Origin: a virus | Direction: 5' to 3' (one strand) | Length of the DNA: 64,000 bases | Virus record (IMG/VR): IMGVR_UViG_3300042546_000155 | Shown: positions 14,321-50,618 of the stretch, in pieces | Numbering within the stretch: the first letter of the stretch is position 1 | How the letters are laid out: every line of letters starts with the position of its first letter | Notes under the pieces: generated by a model | What the model was told of the DNA's origin: nothing | Database searches by the model: none | What the model saw: only the letters and a program-made list of their open reading frames with translations | Translations under genes and position numbers: made by a program

Positions 14321-14348
14321 AAAAAGGGTGCGACGTTTTGTCGCACCC
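14321..14348 (-). terminator. intrinsic terminator after pmoC
   Basis: GGGTGCGAC-AAAAC-GTCGCACCC-TTTTT. Confidence 0.8.
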
Positions 14349-14373
14349 CAGTTTACATTCGTTTACATTTACC

Positions 14374-15144
14374 TTACTCGGTTAGGAGAGCAACGCCTTC
14401 CTTACCAACTAGAGAATGAACACGTCCTAGGATCTGTAGCACAACACCAAAGACACCTAGTGCCATCCATCCAAAGAATACGAAGCCCCAATGTAGCGGT
14501 GCCACAAATAGCTCTTCCATAAACCAGAATGTATGACCCCACTCATTGAGCCCAACGTTTGGAATAATCATGAATGGACCAATAGCAACAATCAGGAACG
14601 CAAGGCTATATCCCTGTGCGAAGTAAGGAATACGGGTCTTCGCATAGAAGAACGCACCAACAGCGATGATTGAATAGATTGGATAACTCATGTAGAACTC
14701 AATGATATGTGACGGAGTGAAGTCGGTATCACGAATGACTGTCATATGCCAGGTACCATCTTGTTCGGTGAAGAAACTTGCACCCCAATAGATAGCAACA
14801 GCATAAACAACCAACCACTGAACTAATACAGTTAGACGACGCATTTCTTCACGAGGTGAGAGGCTTGCGAGGTCACGGTCTCTTGTCTTCCATAGGTAAC
14901 CTGCTAGTGCAAGACCTGAAACCAATTCTAGTGGAATTTCTGTCCAGAGGATACTCATCCAGTATGTCTGGAACTCTGGTGCGAACGAGTCAAGGCCGGC
15001 ACGCCAACCATATACTTGTTCATAAATACGGACTATTAGATAAAAGGTATTTAGAAGGGCTAGGCCGATCCACATACCCCTAAGGTCAACGACCTCATTA
15101 ACGCCGGTAGCCACGGCTTTCGCCGATTGATTTACAACGCTCAT
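14374..15144 (-). CDS. pmoC: particulate methane monooxygenase subunit C (Methylocystis-type)
   Basis: GLDSFAPEFQTYW, WGASFFTEQDGTWHMTVIRDTDFTPSH (Asp/His/His metal ligands), PNVGLNEWGHTFWFMEELFVAPLHWGF; TAGGAG RBS. Confidence 0.98.
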   Translation of the reverse strand: MSVVNQSAKAVATGVNEVVDLRGMWIGLALLNTFYLIVRIYEQVYGWRAGLDSFAPEFQTYWMSILWTEIPLELVSGLALAGYLWKTRDRDLASLSPREEMRRLTVLVQWLVVYAVAIYWGASFFTEQDGTWHMTVIRDTDFTPSHIIEFYMSYPIYSIIAVGAFFYAKTRIPYFAQGYSLAFLIVAIGPFMIIPNVGLNEWGHTFWFMEELFVAPLHWGFVFFGWMALGVFGVVLQILGRVHSLVGKEGVALLTE

Positions 15145-15166
15145 ATATCACTCCTATTTTATTATT

Positions 15167-15207
15167 GACCGGGTCTTCCGGGATAGGTTACCCGGTCTGT
15201 TATTTAG
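15167..15207 (-). promoter_or_regulatory. T4-type late promoter (CTAAATA) plus 5' leader hairpin of pmoC
   Basis: CTAAATA at 15201-15207, matching the boxes before gp22 and gp3; 8-bp stem GACCGGGT/ACCCGGTC. Confidence 0.65.
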
Positions 15208-15293
15208 CAGTCCCTATTGACTACTTGACAATAGTATGACATAGATTGCCGATGGAAAACAGTCAATCCTAGACAATCTGCTATCAATTTTCG

Positions 15294-17271
15294 TCATTCG
15301 TCAGGAACTTCCATATTAGGATTAAGTAAAGGAATAGTTCCTGTTGCTCCTCCATACGACATAGATACACCAGGCTTTGATGACTGCCATCCTTTTCTAT
15401 AACCATCAGATGGTGGAGGTGCGCCGTTAATTTGTGCCATGCTTTCTTCATATGTGCCTGGACCGAGAGAACGATTTTCAGTCGTCATTGGTACTTGAGC
15501 ATTAACCGCCGTGGGGAATACCACCATTAAGATCAAGATCAAAAATTTCATCATACATTCTTTCCTCTTTTCTTTTTGAATAGATACCATTGCAGTCTTA
15601 TAAAACCAATGACACGATTGATATAGTCGATCAGATATATATCTCTCTTGTTAAGCCTCAGGCGTAGTTGATTGTTTTCATCTTCATACTTTTGTATGAG
15701 ATATGCAGCACGGCGAGGGACAGAGTTGCAATGAACATGATTAGCCTTTTCAACCCAATCTGCTAACTCGTGTAGTTGTTTGATTAGTTCATCATTACTC
15801 ATACGACATATACCATAAACCAAGCGATGAAAAGTGCAATTGTAATAAGGACGGGAACAAACCCAAAGGCATATACTAGTCCTCCGATAATTGCAATCCA
15901 TAACGCTATACCGAACAATTCAACTTTCATCTATTCTCTCACCTATTTCATTGACGTGGAAACCAGGACGGATATCTGTATCTTCCGTTGTTATCTTGAA
16001 GAACTTGATAACATGGTTAGAATACCATCTGTCCCGGTCTCCACCGTCGAACTTTTGTTCTCTTATATAATCATCAAACAGTTTGTTATATTCTGCTTGA
16101 GTTATTGATTTCATTCAACTGATCTTCTAATTCTGCGATACGTTGTCGTAGTTTAGCGTTTTCTTCAATCAAACCCAATGCGGCAGATGATGAAATTTCA
16201 GTCACCTGTTTTGTCCCATCCTTATTAAACTTCATCGTCATAGTTCGTTCATCGTTCATTCTTTATACTCCTTAGACATACAATAACAGCAAAAAATAAA
16301 ACTACTATGGGCACTAAAACTAATGGTTCATGAGTTAGTCCATACATAGGAGCAGAGGCAAGTATGCAAATCAATCCAGTTATGATTAGAAACTCTTTCT
16401 TACTCACAAATCAGCCTTCATCATCGTCTCACTTCCAAAACGCATACGCTTCAATAGCATACTTGTTTCTGGTAGAATACGGTTCATAAAATATTCTGCG
16501 GTATTGTGTCTGTCCTTATCGTCAGTCATCTTTACATAATTCTCTTATTAGTTCGGCAATCTTCAAACAGTTTTCAGAGTTATACACATTAGACCAATAT
16601 GCTTGATCTTCACCGTTTGTTGGTCGTTTGCTGAAATACTGTGACGTTGATTCTAACCATAATATTGCTTCAAACGCTGTCATTCTACAATCTCCTCATA
16701 ACCACGATGCTTCGTAATAGATAGAACGATATTCATCCTTAGAATGTTCTTCAGTTAGCCAGTTTTTAGCCTTCGTGAATAGTTCTATATCACGAGCCTT
16801 CTGTTCCTCATGAGGATCGTATTCGTCTTTTTCCTCTGTGAAATAAGCCTTACCAAAGAAAAAACCTGTTACAAGTTCATCATAATGGCTATCATTCTCC
16901 CATACATTAATAATATAATCAAGGTCATCTTTATCTAGATCGATCTTCTGGCCATCATCAAATCCGGCAGCAAAGGCTTCAACGATAAATCCATGAAGGT
17001 TGACACGTTTATTCCAATAACCCATTTCAAGTAACACAGACGAAACAGGAAATCCATCGACCTTTTGTTCTTTGGAAAAAGAACACTTATTACCGTAGAG
17101 ATACATATCAAGACCCATGTTTCAATCCTTTCTTGACTTCCTTTTCCGATACAACATTTCCGCAACTACAAAAGGATCTATTCCAGGAAAGTATCCTTTT
17201 TCTTGGAGATACTCAGCCTGTCTAATATACTCTATTTGCTCTCGGAAGTCAAGTTCTTTCCACGATTTCAT
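15294..17271 (-). CDS. run of small hypothetical genes (includes a signal-peptide protein at 15294-15554 and the MGLDMYL-type protein 16696-17118)
   Basis: Packed small ORFs; no function recognised. Confidence 0.5.
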
Positions 17272-17352
17272 CAAAACCTCGGAATACTAAATAGAAGTGT
17301 AGGTCGCAGGACGGGAATCCTCACCTACTCTAAACCTGATCGGAGGTCCAGC

Positions 17353-18048
17353 ATGGATATTTATACTACAACCAACTACCGCAAAATCTGGGAACATTTC
17401 AACGGTCCTATTCCTAAAGACGAACAAGGAAGATCGTATGAAATCCATCACATCGACGGTAATCATTCCAATAATCATATAGATAATCTCCAGTGTGTTT
17501 CTATACAGGAACATTACGATATTCATTTTTCCCAGAACGACACATACGCTTGTTTGAGAATATCTCAAAAACTCAAAATGTCCCAACAAGAAATCTCTGA
17601 CTTTGCCACCAAGTTGAATAACGAAAGATGGTCTGATCCCGAATACTATGCCAGAATGTTAGAAATCAATAACGCTCCTGAGATAAGAAAACTAAGGTCA
17701 GATAATCTAAAAAGACAATGGGATGATCCAGAGTTTCGTGATAACATGGTGGCCATTAGAAACTCTCCTGAATACTTGGAAGAAAGATCAAAGATAAGTT
17801 CAAAGGTTTGGTCCAATACTGCCAAAAGAGAAGCATTATCAAAGAAGCATAAAGAAACATGGTCTGACCCTAAAAAGAGACAAGAGCAGTCGGAAAGACG
17901 AAAGAAGTATTTCCAAACTGCTCCTGTGTTTCATTGCTCATGCTGTAATCGTGATATAAAAGGACAACACAACTGGAATCAACATCTAAACTCCAAACAA
18001 CATCAGAACTCGTCTGGAGTTAGTGCCATCATTGTTTGTGATCCTTGA
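17353..18048 (+). mobile_element. free-standing HNH homing endonuclease with C-terminal zinc finger
   Basis: YEIHHIDGNHSNNHIDNL...EHYDIH; repeated basic W-x-D/N-P-E helices; CSCC...HLNSKQH; opposite strand with its own ACTAAATA (17286-17293) and GGAGG RBS. Confidence 0.85.
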
Positions 18049-30608: not shown

Positions 30609-31151
30609 TCACTTAGGTGTTAGCGAGTCCGCAATCTTCTGGACGCCATCCGCCCACGCTTTCGTACCCTCGTTGAGAAGCTGCCTCGTCGTCTCCCCGA
30701 CGCCGAACGGATCCAAGATATCGATTTTCTTAGCCTTCTTCTCCTCGGGAATATAGCGTTCAAGAGCGATTTTAAGTAGACCATTGACCAACTCCGCATT
30801 TTTTACAACAACAGTGTCAGCAAGAGTGAACTTGCGAGTAAAGGCACGATTTGCAATGCCTTGATAGATGTAATCGTTTTCCTCGGCTTCATGTGAACCA
30901 GTAATAGTTAGTTCACCTTCCTTCAATTCAATATCAAGGTTCTGCTTGCCGAAACCAGCAACAGCCATTTCGATCACAAAATGTTCATCATCAATCTTTT
31001 TGATATTGTATGGAGGGTAATTAGATGCCTTTGCCAATTGTTCATTAGAACGGCGCAAAGTATCTAGAATGGCATCAAAGCCGATAAATTGACGGGATAG
31101 CGAATCAGGAATACCAAAGTTATCGGTATTGAATTTCTTGAAAGTTTCCAT
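30609..31151 (-). CDS. small heat-shock protein Hsp20 (IbpA-like)
   Basis: NYPPYNI, IEMAVAGF, GIANRAFTRKFTLA, NGLLKIAL. Confidence 0.93.
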   Translation of the reverse strand: METFKKFNTDNFGIPDSLSRQFIGFDAILDTLRRSNEQLAKASNYPPYNIKKIDDEHFVIEMAVAGFGKQNLDIELKEGELTITGSHEAEENDYIYQGIANRAFTRKFTLADTVVVKNAELVNGLLKIALERYIPEEKKAKKIDILDPFGVGETTRQLLNEGTKAWADGVQKIADSLTPK

Positions 31152-31204: not shown

Positions 31205-31234
31205 ATACATTATATAGTAAACATCGGGTGATTG

Positions 31235-31789
31235 TCAAGTGGAATAGTAGGTGGAAAATGTAAAAGTGTTACCTGATGTTTCACCGGTGACTGAGGAACC
31301 ATTAACAACGGTATTCGATACATTAGCCAAAACTAGAACATCGAAACCAGCACCACCACCATCAACTACACGGTAGATATCACCTACCTTCTGGCCTCCA
31401 GCTAATACATTTTCTCCTGTATCCATTCTGCCATTTTTGTTACCTTTACCACCACCCATCATGCCAAGGGTGCTACTAAGCATCCCATACGCCTTTACAA
31501 CACCCGAACCTTCGGCAGGTGTTGGCAGACCAGTTACATGAGGTATAATGCCTTGAACATCTGGTGATCCTTGATCTAACAAAGAAACGACAAGAGGGAC
31601 ACCTCCGACCAAGACATTACCCGGTGATAGAGATAGCAAAGCACCTAGATTATTGTGTGTATTTAAATCACCAGCTACCGCAACAGGCTTACCCTCAACA
31701 AACACATTCATTGGGTTGCCAGGACCTGGTGTGGTTAAAGCACCACACATTCTTAATGCACCGATGAAATGAACTGGAAATCCGCTCAT
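31235..31789 (-). CDS. PAAR-like spike-tip protein with C-terminal extension
   Basis: HFIGALRMCGA...NVFVEGKPVAVAGD...NVLVGG...H...AEGS; Cys/His pattern. Confidence 0.55.
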   Translation of the reverse strand: MSGFPVHFIGALRMCGALTTPGPGNPMNVFVEGKPVAVAGDLNTHNNLGALLSLSPGNVLVGGVPLVVSLLDQGSPDVQGIIPHVTGLPTPAEGSGVVKAYGMLSSTLGMMGGGKGNKNGRMDTGENVLAGGQKVGDIYRVVDGGGAGFDVLVLANVSNTVVNGSSVTGETSGNTFTFSTYYST

Positions 31790-45560: not shown

Positions 45561-47285
45561 TCAACCCTCTTTTGTCAAGGTGCTAAAGTTCTTTACCTTC
45601 TCAAACTTGATAGTTCTTTCAAATCTATCAATCATTGTGTCCTTATGGGAAATGACAAACACATTAGTTCCTTCATGTCCGATATCCCACATGATACGGA
45701 TAAACTCATCAATACCGCTAGAGTCCATAGCACGATCTAGTATCTCATCGAACACAAGGATATTGACATTGACACTATTCTTTAGTTTGGCAATCTGTCG
45801 CCATGTTAGAAGAATAGCAAGGTCAATTCTTAACTTCTCTCCTTCTGAGAAATTGTGGTATGAGAACTCGTCTCGGTATCTAGACTTGATAGATTCTTCG
45901 AATGACTCATTGATATTAAAGTTGACGAAGAAGCCAAGTTTTGCAAGATACTTGTTGATGTGTTTGTTAATGATGGGTAGATACTGCTTAATGATCTTAG
46001 TTTTGATTCCACCATCTTTGAGTAGAGTAGTAGCGAGGTCGATGTATTGACGCTCATCTAAAAGGGTCTCCTTCTCCTTTTGGAGGGTGGAAATATCATG
46101 TTGCACTGTTTCAAGTTGTCGTTCTGACTCTTGGGTGGTTTTATCTGACCCAGAGAAGGATTCAATCTGCTCAACAACTTGGCGCAGATTATTAGCAATA
46201 TTGTTATAGGAAGACTTAGCAGATGCCAAGTCCATCTTAAGGATGTTGATGTTAGTAAGGATCTTTTCAATCTCATCGATTTCCGTTAGAACCGAGTCAA
46301 TCTGCTTTTCAACTTTATTTAGTCCGTCGGAAAGTTCATTGATCTTAACATCATTATCTTCGATCATCTTTTTTGAAAACTCAGGATCAATATCCTGACG
46401 ACAAGTCGGACATGTGCCTGTAGCTGCAAAGAAGTCAATGTCTTTGACATACTTATCACGATTAGCTTCCATCTTTGCTCTGAAAGATAGTAGCTTAGAA
46501 TGCTTAGACTTAAAAGGTGATAGATCAAGATCCTTTTCAAGAGCCTTCTCTAGCAAGACTTGACGATTAGCCACACCTTGCTTTTCAATAGCAACCTGTT
46601 CCTCTAGGCCCTGCTTCTTTGCTTCTAGTTCTCTTAGCTTTTCTTCACTGTTGGCCTTGAGTGAAGCGAGAGTCTTTTCGATATAAGACTTGTTTTCATC
46701 CTTAGATGTTAGAATGACACGGTTCTTCTCCAAACCTTCACGATTAGCCTGTAGTCTATTCTTAACCACGGTTGACATGGCTGTAAAGATTTGAATGTCT
46801 AGAAGGTCTTCAATAACTGCACGGCGATCATTAGCTGATAGCTGCATGAATGGAACGAACGATGCCGAGCCGAGGATGACCACCTGTGTAAAGGACTTGA
46901 AGTTCATCTTAAGGATATGCTTCTCAAGATATTCTTGATAATCCTTCGCAGCGGCATCTTGATTCAACATGACACCATCACAATAGATTTGAAAGAGATT
47001 TGGTTTTGCACCACGAACAACTTTATATCTTTTGTTGTTTATGGAAAACTCAATCTCAACCTCACAGTTCTTATTGTTGATAGAGTTTACAACATTACCC
47101 TTGTTCACCTTACGAAAAGGCTTACCGAATAGCACAAAAGTCAATGCGTCGAGGAAGGTTGACTTCCCCGACCCATTGTGGCCCATGATTAGAGTATTCT
47201 TGTGCGTATCTAGTTCAATTTCTGTCCATACATTACCTGCGGACAGAAAATTCTTCCACTTGACATAATGAAAAGTTATCATCAA
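45561..47285 (-). CDS. 46: recombination endonuclease ATPase subunit (gp46, Rad50/SbcC-like)
   Basis: [13 protein letters not shown] zinc hook, FSEGEK, FDEILD, SH. Confidence 0.95.
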
Positions 47286-49066
47286 AACTCTCTTGTTGGA
47301 ATCTTACCCTCTAGTAGATCGGAGATTTCTTCACCCGATAGAGTTTCGTATTCTAACAGACCATTAGCAAGTTTGTCAAGGTCTTTTCTTTTCTCTGTAA
47401 GGATTTTCTTAGCAGTAAGATATCCTTCTTCAACAAGCCGCTTGATTTCCATATCGACTACCTTCTGAGTTTCTTCGGCAATCTTTGGTGCATGGAACAT
47501 ATCTGCACCTGGTGTTGAGTATGCCATACGACCTAGAACAGGAGAGAAACCATACTCGGTGACCATAGAACGAGCAAGTTGAGTTGCCATCTGAATGTCA
47601 CCAGATGCACCAGAAGATACCTTGTCATCACCAAAGATCATTTCTTCTGCTACACGACCACCCATAGCCATTGCTAGATTGGCGATCATTTCATCATAGT
47701 GCATGGAGATTTTATCTCGCTCTGGTAGGGACTGAACCATACCCAAAGCACGACCACGAGGAATGATTGTTGCTTTGTGAATTGGAACAGAACCAGGCAT
47801 GTTAAGAGAGACTAGAGCATGACCAGCTTCGTGATATGCAGTCATCTTCTTTTCTTCGTCAGTCATCATTAGTGAACGACGCTCAGGACCCATAAGGATC
47901 TTATCACGAGCATCTTCAAACTCCATACTAGTAACGATACGCTTTGATCTTCTAGCAGCAAGCAAAGCCGCTTCATTGACTAGATTAGCAAGGTCAGCAC
48001 CAGAGAAGCCAGGTGTTCCCTTTGCAACTCGCTTTAGATCAACATCAGAACCAATTGGAACCTTGCGAGTATGAACCTTAAGGATCTTTTCACGACCAAT
48101 AAAGTCTGGGTTAGGAACTTGAATCTGACGATCAAAACGACCAGGGCGCAATAGAGCCTTATCTAGAACATCTGCACGGTTTGTAGCAGCGACAATGATA
48201 ATGCCTTCATTAGTTTCAAAGCCATCCATTTCAACTAGCATAGCGTTTAGTGTTTGATCACGCTCATCATTACCTGATATACCGTTTGCTCTTGAACGAC
48301 CAACAGCATCGATTTCGTCAATGAAGATAATGCATGGTGCATTCTTCTTTGCTTGTTCAAACATATCTCTAACACGACTAGCACCAACGCCGACGAACAT
48401 TTCAACGAAGTCGGAACCAGAGATAGAGAAGAAAGGAACATTTGCTTCACCAGCAACCGCTCTTGCTAACAGTGTCTTACCTGTTCCTGGAGGTCCGACG
48501 AGTAGAACACCCTTTGGAATCTTTCCACCAAGTCTATGAAACTTTTCTGGTGATTGTAGAAACTCTACAACCTCTTGCAAGTCTTCTTTGGCATGATCAA
48601 CACCAGCAACATCATCGAATGTTACCTTAGTCTGATTTTCAGTAAGAAGTTTGGCCTTAGACTTACCAAGTCCCATAACACCGCCCGGACCTCCGGCTCG
48701 ACCTCGTGATAGAAAAATCCATAGTGCGAAGAATAGGAAAACAGGAAGTAGATTGATCAATAGACCAAACCAAAAATTACCTTGTTCTTCTTTAACTGTG
48801 ATATTTACTTTGTGCTGTTCAAGGCGAGGGAGTAGATTACTAACTCCGGTGACTGTGGTGGTGAACTGTCGGTTATCCATATAATGTCCGACAACTTCGG
48901 TTCCTATAATTGTTACATCATGAACTCTTCCAGCATCGACTTGTGCAATAAAGTCACTGTAGCCGATTTCACTGATTGCTTTCTGTTTAGGATTATCAAA
49001 CATAAAGGCAACTAGACCGATGGTCAGTCCAATAAGTATAATCCATGGTAAATTCTTTTTAATCAT
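47282..49066 (-). CDS. ftsH: ATP-dependent zinc metalloprotease FtsH
   Basis: Two N-terminal TMs, [39 protein letters not shown]; TATAAATA at 49093-49100. Confidence 0.97.
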
Positions 49067-49095
49067 ATCAAACTTCCTTAAGTTTATCGAAGTAT

Positions 49096-50172
49096 TTATA
49101 CAGTCTCGACCTGTAAGGCCTCATTGTATATGTCCATCATAAAGTGTTTCATTTTACCGCTATCTAATGGTAATGTTAGCGTATCGATATACTTACGAAG
49201 GATCGTAGGGGTATCTTCCGCTTCATTTACTTCGTCTGCTTCTTCGTTCTCTAAGAGAACTGTTGGATCTTCTACGACCGTGATATCTAAAGGACTTGCC
49301 TTATAGATAGAATCAAATAGTAGATCGAAGGCATATGGGTTAGACTTATTGATAACAACAAGCTTAACATAAGTATTCTTATATCTAGAAAAGTCTGTTT
49401 TCTGTATCTTCTCTACGATTTCAGGATTAGCAACATCATCATACTTTGCAATCCTAAACATTCTATATGGATTCTGGACGAACTCTAAAACTCTGGACCC
49501 CGTATCAAATAACGAAAAACCTCGGGGATCATTATAATCATGCCAAGTATATTCTCCAAAAGCGCCAATATAGGATACATTACCAATAGTGCTACGATGA
49601 TGATAGTGACCTGAATATACCTTATCAAATTTATCAAATGCGATGCGTTCCATACCATGGTCTGATATCTGTCCTCTATGCATTGTAAAGCCTGTCAACT
49701 CAAGGTGACCCATGAGAATAGATGCTTTAGGTTTGGTGATTGCTTCTAGTGCTTCTGCACGATTGGAGTCTGTGATCCATGGCATTAGCTGAATGTCTAA
49801 GCCATCAATGTTGATGATTTCAGGAACTGAATAGATGTTAATATTAGAGTATCTACCACGGACAACTTCGTCTAGAGCATTGACCTCGTGAGTATCTTTG
49901 TAATACATATCATGATTACCAACAACGATATGCGTTTCAATACCTCTTTCTGCTAGAGGTTCAAAGAAATCTTCACGAAGGCGCTTGGCAGACATAAAGT
50001 TGATATACTTACGGCGATCATAGATATCACCAAGATGAATGATATGCTTGATACCATGTTCATCAATCTGATTGAAAAACCATTGCCAACATTGCTTTTG
50101 ATACAACTGAAATGCCGGGTTGTCATTTCTGACCCCGGCATGTGTATCTGTTACCATCGCAATCTTTGCCAT
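49096..50172 (-). CDS. 47: recombination endonuclease nuclease subunit (gp47, Mre11/SbcD-like)
   Basis: DTH, GDIYD, GNHD, GHLE, SGHYH. Confidence 0.95.
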
Positions 50173-50235
50173 ACCCAATCCTTAAAGTCTAGTATTAAGT
50201 TCAAAGAAACAGTATATATCATAAAGATGATATTG

Positions 50236-50618
50236 TCAATCGTCTTTGGTAATTTCATTATAGATATCAACCTCGGATTGTCTTATCCATCCCAAATTGA
50301 TCATTCTACGAAACACCTTCTGCTTATCCTCAGGGTTAAGCGGAACAGGTTCTACGATCTTATCACAAAACCATTCTAAGTTTTGCTCAATCTCTTTAAC
50401 AATATCATCCGTGTCCATTATCGTGGTCCCATCTTATATCGAGTTGACTGAACCATTTCCTGATCATATTCTAGTAAAGCCTTATCAATAGCTTTACGAA
50501 TACCTTCTAGTCTCATTCGATAGTTACTACGAATATGAACACGCTCACCTTTATTCTTAAGGGATGTGATCAATGTCTGTACCTGAAAGGGCACATCATA
50601 CTGATTCTCTTCCGTCAT
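50236..50618 (-). CDS. two small hypothetical genes (50236-50418, 50418-50618)
   Basis: Coupled ORFs between genes 55 and 47. Confidence 0.55.

Follow-up and report, generated by a model that had tools for sequence, protein, structure and literature searches.

An FtsH protease gene in T4-related lake phages with pmoC, and its kinship with the pmoC-adjacent ftsH duplicates of Methylocystis

In cyanobacteria, FtsH is the class of protease that removes the D1 protein during repair, and cyanophages with psbA supply D1. Methane-oxidizing bacteria are infected by T4-related freshwater-lake phages of about 170 kb that carry HSP20 and a stand-alone pmoC, the gene for subunit C of particulate methane monooxygenase (pMMO); Methylocystis is the predicted host of those with alpha-type PmoC, and the role of stand-alone pmoC copies, like the reason why phages carry only pmoC, was left as an open question (Chen et al. 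2020, Nat Microbiol, PMC7674155). On the host side, ftsH was noted beside a monocistronic pmoC in strains SC2 and Rockwell, where a check on pMMO folding was speculated; the function of this host pair stands as published speculation only (Dam et al. 2013, PMC3794950). Here we analyse an ftsH gene in a stretch of 64,000 nucleotides (hereafter the window), taken from the minus strand of the 174,499-bp IMG/VR virus record IMGVR_UViG_3300042546_000155 (bases 91576-155575). The record is rated complete by CheckV and belongs to a T4-related lake phage of methane-eating bacteria. It shares the T4-type relationship, the approximate size, the stand-alone pmoC and HSP20 with the phages of Chen et al., and differs in that ftsH is described here as a second host-derived gene linked to the same host locus.

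What is new, as the trees reconstruct it, is a set of 28 phage FtsH lineages forming one clade that is nested inside the FtsH duplicates of Methylocystis, most of which are pmoC-adjacent. According to the reading that we favour, and hold at roughly even credence, the phage FtsH serves PmoC/pMMO quality control and keeps methane oxidation running in infection. In a full-text literature search, no publication describing ftsH in such phages came to light, and FtsH is not mentioned in the main text of PMC7674155 (supplements not searched) or in a 2026 amoC-phage preprint. The genes concerned are as follows.

47282..49066, minus strand: ftsH, a membrane AAA+ zinc metalloprotease of 594 aa (profile matches, motif reading).
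49096..50178, minus strand: gp47-like Mre11/SbcD-type nuclease subunit (calcineurin-like phosphoesterase, Metallophos), upstream of ftsH (profile matches and synteny).
45561..47285, minus strand: gp46-like Rad50/SbcC-type ATPase (SMC_N), downstream of ftsH (profile matches).
14374..15144, minus strand: pmoC, stand-alone pMMO subunit C of 256 aa (profile and similarity matches).
30609..31151, minus strand: hsp20, an IbpA-like small heat-shock protein (profile matches).

The window FtsH contains the FtsH_ext, AAA, AAA_lid_3 and Peptidase_M41 domains (Pfam search), scores 811.5 bits against the cut-off of 600 of the NCBIfam FtsH equivalog TIGR01241, and aligns end to end with the E. coli FtsH structure 7vhp (E 2.5e-196). 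PF06480 (FtsH_ext) covers residues 9-92, and two hydrophobic helices, read from the translation at about residues 7-23 and 99-119, lie around the periplasmic domain. The AAA+ module (PF00004, E 1e-47) has Walker A GPPGTGKT, Walker B DEID, an FVG pore loop and the second region of homology (SRH), and the M41 peptidase (PF01434, E 2e-64) has HEAGH and the third zinc-ligand Glu. A complete FtsH splitting genes 47 and 46 had been proposed in the preliminary description, and this is borne out, with 594 aa and all catalytic motifs intact. As compared to E. coli FtsH/HflB (7vhp), the homology is full-length and the motifs of ATP hydrolysis, substrate threading and zinc proteolysis are shared; in contrast, the window protein is virus-encoded and has no C-terminal tail. 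More generally, phage FtsH lacks the C-terminal tail of about 40 aa found in the host proteins.

Close FtsH relatives were found on 76 viral contigs, with 47-89% identity. HEAGH and GGRVAEE are present in 28/28 phage representatives, all of which also match Walker A, the pore loop, HEXXH and the third Glu. Walker B and SRH are intact in the four phage sequences inspected, two of them pattern misses (DEVD). Full-length open frames with the checked motifs intact are therefore found across 28 diverged phage lineages. Phage ftsH is predicted to encode a working FtsH, that is, a hexameric, membrane-anchored, ATP-driven zinc protease, and in these phages the intact protein is under selection. That ftsH could be a passenger gene, an assembly chimaera or a decaying pseudogene is extremely improbable. 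Its absence from some related phages would fit, but frameshifts or relaxed constraint would be needed and neither is seen in the relatives, whose frames and motifs are intact as described. The codon composition is also phage-like, with a GC content at third codon positions (GC3) of 0.30 versus 0.87 for the host copy, gp47-ftsH-gp46 synteny recurs on dozens of independent contigs, and the gene is translationally coupled to gp46 through a TGATG overlap, in which one A belongs both to the TGA stop of ftsH and to the likely gp46 ATG (47282-47280). Given this GC3 difference and the 76 viral loci that carry the gene, ftsH is not contamination but an old phage resident.

The best bacterial matches, with 65-70% identity, come from Beijerinckiaceae methanotrophs, Methylocapsa aurea and methanotroph metagenome-assembled genomes (MAGs) being on top. 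Among 81 sampled Beijerinckiaceae genomes, two or three close ftsH copies occur only in the pmoC-bearing ones. The extra copies often adjoin pmoC, and such pairs, 0.3-0.6 kb apart, are present in many Methylocystis genomes. Trees were calculated with IQ-TREE by quick searches with SH-aLRT (Shimodaira-Hasegawa-like approximate likelihood ratio test) support only, using LG+C20 with posterior mean site frequencies (PMSF) for a tree of 117 sequences. In this tree, 28/30 phage representatives form one clade (SH-aLRT 100), nested among three pmoC-adjacent bacterial copies. A second tree of 93 rows, with 41 Methylocystis genomes added, places the phage clade (SH-aLRT 99) inside a 46-row clade (99), 14 of the 18 host members of which are pmoC-adjacent. 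Housekeeping copies, with TPR-tilS-ftsH-glmM synteny, stay outside the clade that holds the phages and the host duplicates. A constraint that groups the 25 host duplicates and excludes the phages lowers the log-likelihood by 39.5 units (p-AU 0.0003 in the approximately unbiased test), a result whose weight for our reading is reduced by the fact that this group was defined only once the tree had been seen.

The AAA domains of the host paralogues are 96-99% identical (99% between the two copies of genome G047). Such near-identity raised the suspicion of gene conversion, and the tree was rebuilt without the AAA columns. The phages kept the same placement, which speaks against misplacement by gene conversion. 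Overall, the placements show the probable donor to be a Methylocystis extra ftsH beside a stand-alone pmoC, and not the housekeeping tilS-ftsH-glmM copy. The genus is also indicated by the pmoC>ftsH region of G047, which matches the M. iwaonis plasmid NZ_AP027145 at 90%; hence Methylocystis as donor-type genus. The pmoC-adjacent copies of Methylocystis, among them 'FtsH1', are the closest kin of phage FtsH, have an equal domain set and share with sister phages the pairing with pmoC. On the other hand, the phage copies are 64-70% identical to them and tail-less, show a phage codon composition and, in the window, sit inside the gp47/gp46 operon. Upstream of the host ftsH duplicates, the gene clusters had no Pfam match, and no host hsp20 was found beside ftsH-pmoC.

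On the host side, pmoC>ftsH pairs were also observed on Methylocystis plasmids (G047:C4, L276 and L297; G139:C4, L351; M. iwaonis NZ_AP027145/6), and in G126, G128, G140 and G151 even the housekeeping tilS-ftsH has a pmoC after it. Within Methylocystis, the two genes thus form a mobile and recurrent pair.

Several arrangements of ftsH are found in the phages. In the first, which is that of the window and of dozens of independent contigs, the order is uvsW ... gp47-ftsH-gp46. In the second, pmoC-hsp20-Peptidase_M15-ftsH-DNA polymerase B lie on one strand, with 1.3-2.0 kb from pmoC to ftsH, so that these sister phages hold pmoC, hsp20 and ftsH within about 4 kb. In records estimated at about 350 kb, ftsH and pmoC are 8-10 kb apart, whereas in the window the distance is 32 kb and the direct adjacency of the host pmoC-linked duplicate is absent. 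Where a pmoC phage lacks ftsH, gp46 directly adjoins gp47 or is separated from it by 0.5-0.9 kb, which identifies ftsH as an insertion at this junction; its position there is derived, because the sister lineages keep the pmoC-hsp20-peptidase-ftsH cluster. Within the phage clade, the records of the 350-kb type branch first, followed by a contig with pmoC 1.8 kb away, and the last split separates the clustered lineage from the gp47/gp46 lineage. The simplest history would be a single capture, probably with or beside pmoC, then a move to the 47/46 junction. A functional link between ftsH and PmoC, as put forward in the preliminary description, gains support from this descent from a pmoC-adjacent host duplicate and from the clustering in sister phages.

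The gp47/gp46 junction itself is a recurrent insertion site. In ten loci (L012-L015, L020, L022-L024, L031, L059) there is an extra 0.25-0.7 kb between ftsH and gp46, two genes that overlap in the window.

Like ftsH, phage pmoC is an old resident whose third codon positions have been recoded (GC3 0.42 in the phage versus 0.78 in the host); its product has nevertheless stayed 86-93% identical to host PmoC. The window protein is 86-87% identical to the PmoC encoded after ftsH in G038, a MAG of the genus Methylocystis, and 80% identical to that of Methylocapsa aurea. Operonic and stand-alone host copies match the phage protein equally, at about 91%, and have been reported to be identical (Dam et al. 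2013, PMC3794950). As these copies are indistinguishable, a PmoC tree could not show whether the phage gene came from the ftsH-linked one.

Expression signals in the window are as follows.

49093..49100, minus strand: late-promoter motif TATAAATA (genome-wide core [AC]TAAATA), exact match.
49073..49079, minus strand: ribosome-binding site AAGGAAG, read from the sequence, 6 nt before the ftsH ATG.
15201..15207, minus strand: late-promoter motif CTAAATA, 56 nt before the pmoC ATG.
14325..14349, minus strand: intrinsic-terminator-like hairpin and T-run, 25 nt past the pmoC stop.
31209..31238, minus strand: perfect sigma-70 consensus promoter TTGACA-18-TATAAT (12/12), early type, ahead of hsp20.
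50211..50239, minus strand: sigma-70-type promoter-like site TTGACA-17-TATACT, ahead of gp47.
47350..47379, minus strand: promoter-like site TTGACA-18-TAGAAT (11/12, with TG) in the 3' end of ftsH, suitably positioned for transcription of gp46.

The exact TATAAATA that the preliminary description had placed over the gp47 stop is indeed there. It covers the TAA (49096-49098) and ends 26 nt from the ftsH ATG. As an 8-mer it is not significantly enriched, with 5 occurrences in the window versus 3.5 expected; a position-specific analysis of 7-mers was therefore used instead. Genome-wide, no words are more enriched in the 80 nt ahead of start codons than ATAAATA and CTAAATA (about 10-fold), 51/57 [AC]TAAATA sites are on the coding strand, and 30/57 lie at most 80 nt upstream of a start versus about 5% expected, with a mode at 20-30 nt. 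Among the genes downstream of these sites are those for baseplate wedge, tail fibre, sheath, portal, scaffold and tube. [AC]TAAATA thus appears to be a genuine phage late promoter motif of T4 type, and the ftsH site, at 26 nt, falls within the commonest spacing. No terminator-like site was found between the promoter-like site ahead of gp47 and gp46, and ftsH is therefore also readable within a 47-ftsH-46 unit.

The same description had assigned late promoters to pmoC and, by implication, to hsp20. Both genes are present in the genome. For pmoC the late promoter stands as CTAAATA and not as the exact 8-mer, and [AC]TAAATA is found 51-88 nt upstream of pmoC in 29/36 distinct phage upstream regions. 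For hsp20 the claim fails: the gene has the 12/12 sigma-70 promoter and no late motif of its own, the two nearby TATAAATA sites preceding neighbouring genes. In addition, a conserved hairpin-forming 5' leader follows the phage pmoC late motif (window 15145-15210; L037, L055, L094, L102, L118 and others). With its terminator-like hairpin, pmoC looks like a self-contained late-expressed cassette, the leader of which is possibly regulatory.

The data reported here show the identity, integrity, origin, linkage and promoter context of the gene; the substrate of the phage FtsH and its benefit to the phage we infer. In the quality-control reading that we favour, an ancestral phage would have captured ftsH once from a Methylocystis-type alphaproteobacterial methanotroph, in which the donor copy would have adjoined a stand-alone pmoC, sometimes on plasmids. 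Sister lineages have kept pmoC, hsp20, the M15 peptidase gene and ftsH as a block ahead of the DNA polymerase gene, and the window lineage would have relocated ftsH between gp47 and gp46. There, the gene would be transcribed with the 47-ftsH-46 operon and, in the window sub-lineage, also from its own late promoter. The protein would insert into the host cytoplasmic or intracytoplasmic membrane, where it would extract and degrade damaged, unassembled or surplus PmoC/pMMO subunits, in a manner similar to the suspected role of the host pmoC-linked FtsH. Methane oxidation, which is the energy supply of the cell, could then continue as host protein synthesis declines, and new host or phage PmoC could be assembled.

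Several observations weigh against this reading. FtsH has many substrates in model bacteria, and full-length ftsH is also found in phages of non-methanotrophs, namely PA5oct-like Pseudomonas phages and Microcystis phage MaAM05. Phage and host FtsH, 64-70% identical overall, are only 25-54% identical in the membrane/periplasmic part, so the partners of the protease may have changed. The host pmoC-ftsH link is itself only genomic. Finally, all three combinations of the genes occur: both, ftsH alone and pmoC alone. Among B-type phages, two variants have ftsH without pmoC: one has lost 595 bp within pmoC, of which a 77-codon stub remains, and in the other the entire pmoC cassette has been cleanly excised (942 bp). 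These are two separate deletions and both variants keep hsp20-M15-ftsH. In group A, G004 has gp47-ftsH-gp46, but the neighbours of the window pmoC are there separated by only 228 bp. Conversely, G020, G022 and G027 (98-100% complete) have pmoC and no ftsH, and in the B-type cluster without ftsH the slot is taken by a carbamoyltransferase or other small genes, or is empty.

These facts bear on the possibility, which we regard as real though rather doubtful, that phage FtsH is a general protease of membrane proteostasis or host takeover, and that its kinship with pmoC-linked copies is the trace of DNA captured together. Its clients would then be jammed or unassembled membrane proteins, LpxC, sigma-32-type or phage regulators, or the late membrane-protein load. 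That ftsH outlives pmoC, twice in B-type phages and in G004, and that pmoC phages manage without ftsH, would be expected of such a protease. The loss of the host-type C-terminal tail and the divergence of the membrane part are in line with it, as is the promoter of the sister lineages, in which a conserved sigma-70-type TTGACT-17-TATAAT of early type stands before ftsH in place of the late motif.

Occurrence elsewhere points the same way. The Pseudomonas and Microcystis jumbo phages with ftsH are unrelated to those studied here; like them, the PA5oct group and MaAM05 encode a genuine full-length phage FtsH, which is 39-52% identical, in other hosts and with no pmoC. This low identity and the unrelated hosts suggest separate captures. 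In our FtsH searches MaAM05 was the only cyanophage record with ftsH, the T4-like cyanomyovirus records being matched via gp46 only. In addition, L158 (on G025, a 259-kb pmoC-carrying record) and L071/L072 hold a second, unrelated phage FtsH lineage, 47-50% identical, on a long branch outside the main clade, which appears to be an independent capture in trees made without gammaproteobacterial references. A general role is, however, opposed by the donor, a methanotroph-specific duplicate and not the housekeeping gene. Moreover, all close relatives found sit in phages with alpha-methanotroph-type pmoC or its remnants, and the ancestral arrangement puts ftsH within 2 kb of pmoC.

The original model was stricter than the quality-control reading: phage FtsH would remove host PmoC and phage PmoC would replace it in pMMO, both genes being needed. 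Both are intact in the window genome and in near-complete relatives, namely G002 and G003 (99-100% complete), and both also occur in several large fragments and in the pmoC records G019 and G025. Four near-complete (>=94%) genomes belong to the gp47-ftsH-gp46 lineage, and the three that cover the pmoC site (3/3) have both genes. The fourth, G001 (164 kb, 94% complete), has ftsH and no pmoC match. It was rejected as a counter-example, because the contig breaks exactly at the pmoC slot, which its two ends flank, and it is uninformative. Also in favour of an exchange are the late motif before both genes in the window, their shared origin beside host pmoC, the clustering with hsp20 in sister phages, and a PmoC that, at about 90% identity to the host protein, should fit host PmoA/PmoB.

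What opposes the exchange is, above all, that ftsH and pmoC are separable in both directions. An ftsH equally common in related phages lacking pmoC had been part of the pattern named beforehand as speaking against it, and this pattern is partly observed, since ftsH was kept after two pmoC deletions and in G004 and there are pmoC phages without ftsH. Mutual dependence of protease and replacement subunit, as in a D1/psbA-like cycle, was not found. The timing signals differ as well: pmoC is late in the 29/36 regions, and ftsH is of early type in the sisters and mostly non-late in its own lineage, that of gp47-ftsH-gp46, where the late motif precedes ftsH in only 6/19 distinct upstream variants. 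In the 6 variants with the motif, GTA-to-GTC changes preserve [AC]TAAATA, and in those without it the ribosome site comes directly after the gp47 stop. The late promoter first proposed for ftsH thus exists in the window and is missing from most of the lineage and from the sister lineages; late expression is stable for phage pmoC (29/36) and not for phage ftsH (6/19). Besides, nothing suggests that the protease distinguishes host from phage PmoC. From the separability of the genes, an obligatory exchange of host for phage PmoC is quite unlikely. The link to PmoC drawn in that model is supported, whereas the specific swap is weakened by the independence of the genes and their different promoter types.

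The likeness with cyanophages can be taken further. As with psbA and D1 repair, the phage supplies a core membrane subunit of a host energy enzyme; unlike that system, the protease itself is here phage-borne, and the likeness is one of analogy, not of membership. By this analogy, methanotrophs might run a D1-like pMMO repair in which PmoC is sacrificial and removed by a dedicated FtsH paralogue, and phages would have captured both halves, with Hsp20 as holdase. We regard this as unlikely, but cyanophage psbA would then have its first counterpart outside photosynthesis, and one with a phage-carried repair protease. A stress role of AmoC3 in Nitrosomonas, reportedly described by Berube and Stahl in 2012, is a parallel for spare C subunits and not evidence.

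That phages took, besides pmoC, the very host ftsH that adjoins stand-alone pmoC, and kept this ftsH intact through long divergence, suggests that the key step is the assembly or turnover of PmoC. The two genes form a concrete, testable pair. If the link is true, a cycle of repair or quality control exists for pMMO, with relevance to the methane sink and to heterologous pMMO expression; if it is false, these phages still encode a rare phage FtsH with a traceable donor.

Other observations concern the neighbourhood of these genes. In the clustered lineage, hsp20 and ftsH are invariably separated by the gene for a 221-aa Peptidase_M15_4 protein (D-Ala-D-Ala carboxypeptidase-like; L039:5271-5936 and homologues), which may be an endolysin unrelated to either. 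Phages of this clustered type have a site of variable cargo between the M15 peptidase and the DNA polymerase (L102:5124-6752, L121:12558-13591, L086:3665-4241), which contains ftsH, a 542-aa carbamoyltransferase, a holin-like gene with an unknown gene, or nothing. Beside the pmoC slot, three open reading frames are 100% identical between the window (16525-18045) and L063 (1124-2650), whereas the FtsH proteins are only 67% identical, which indicates a very recent recombination between the window and L063 lineages.

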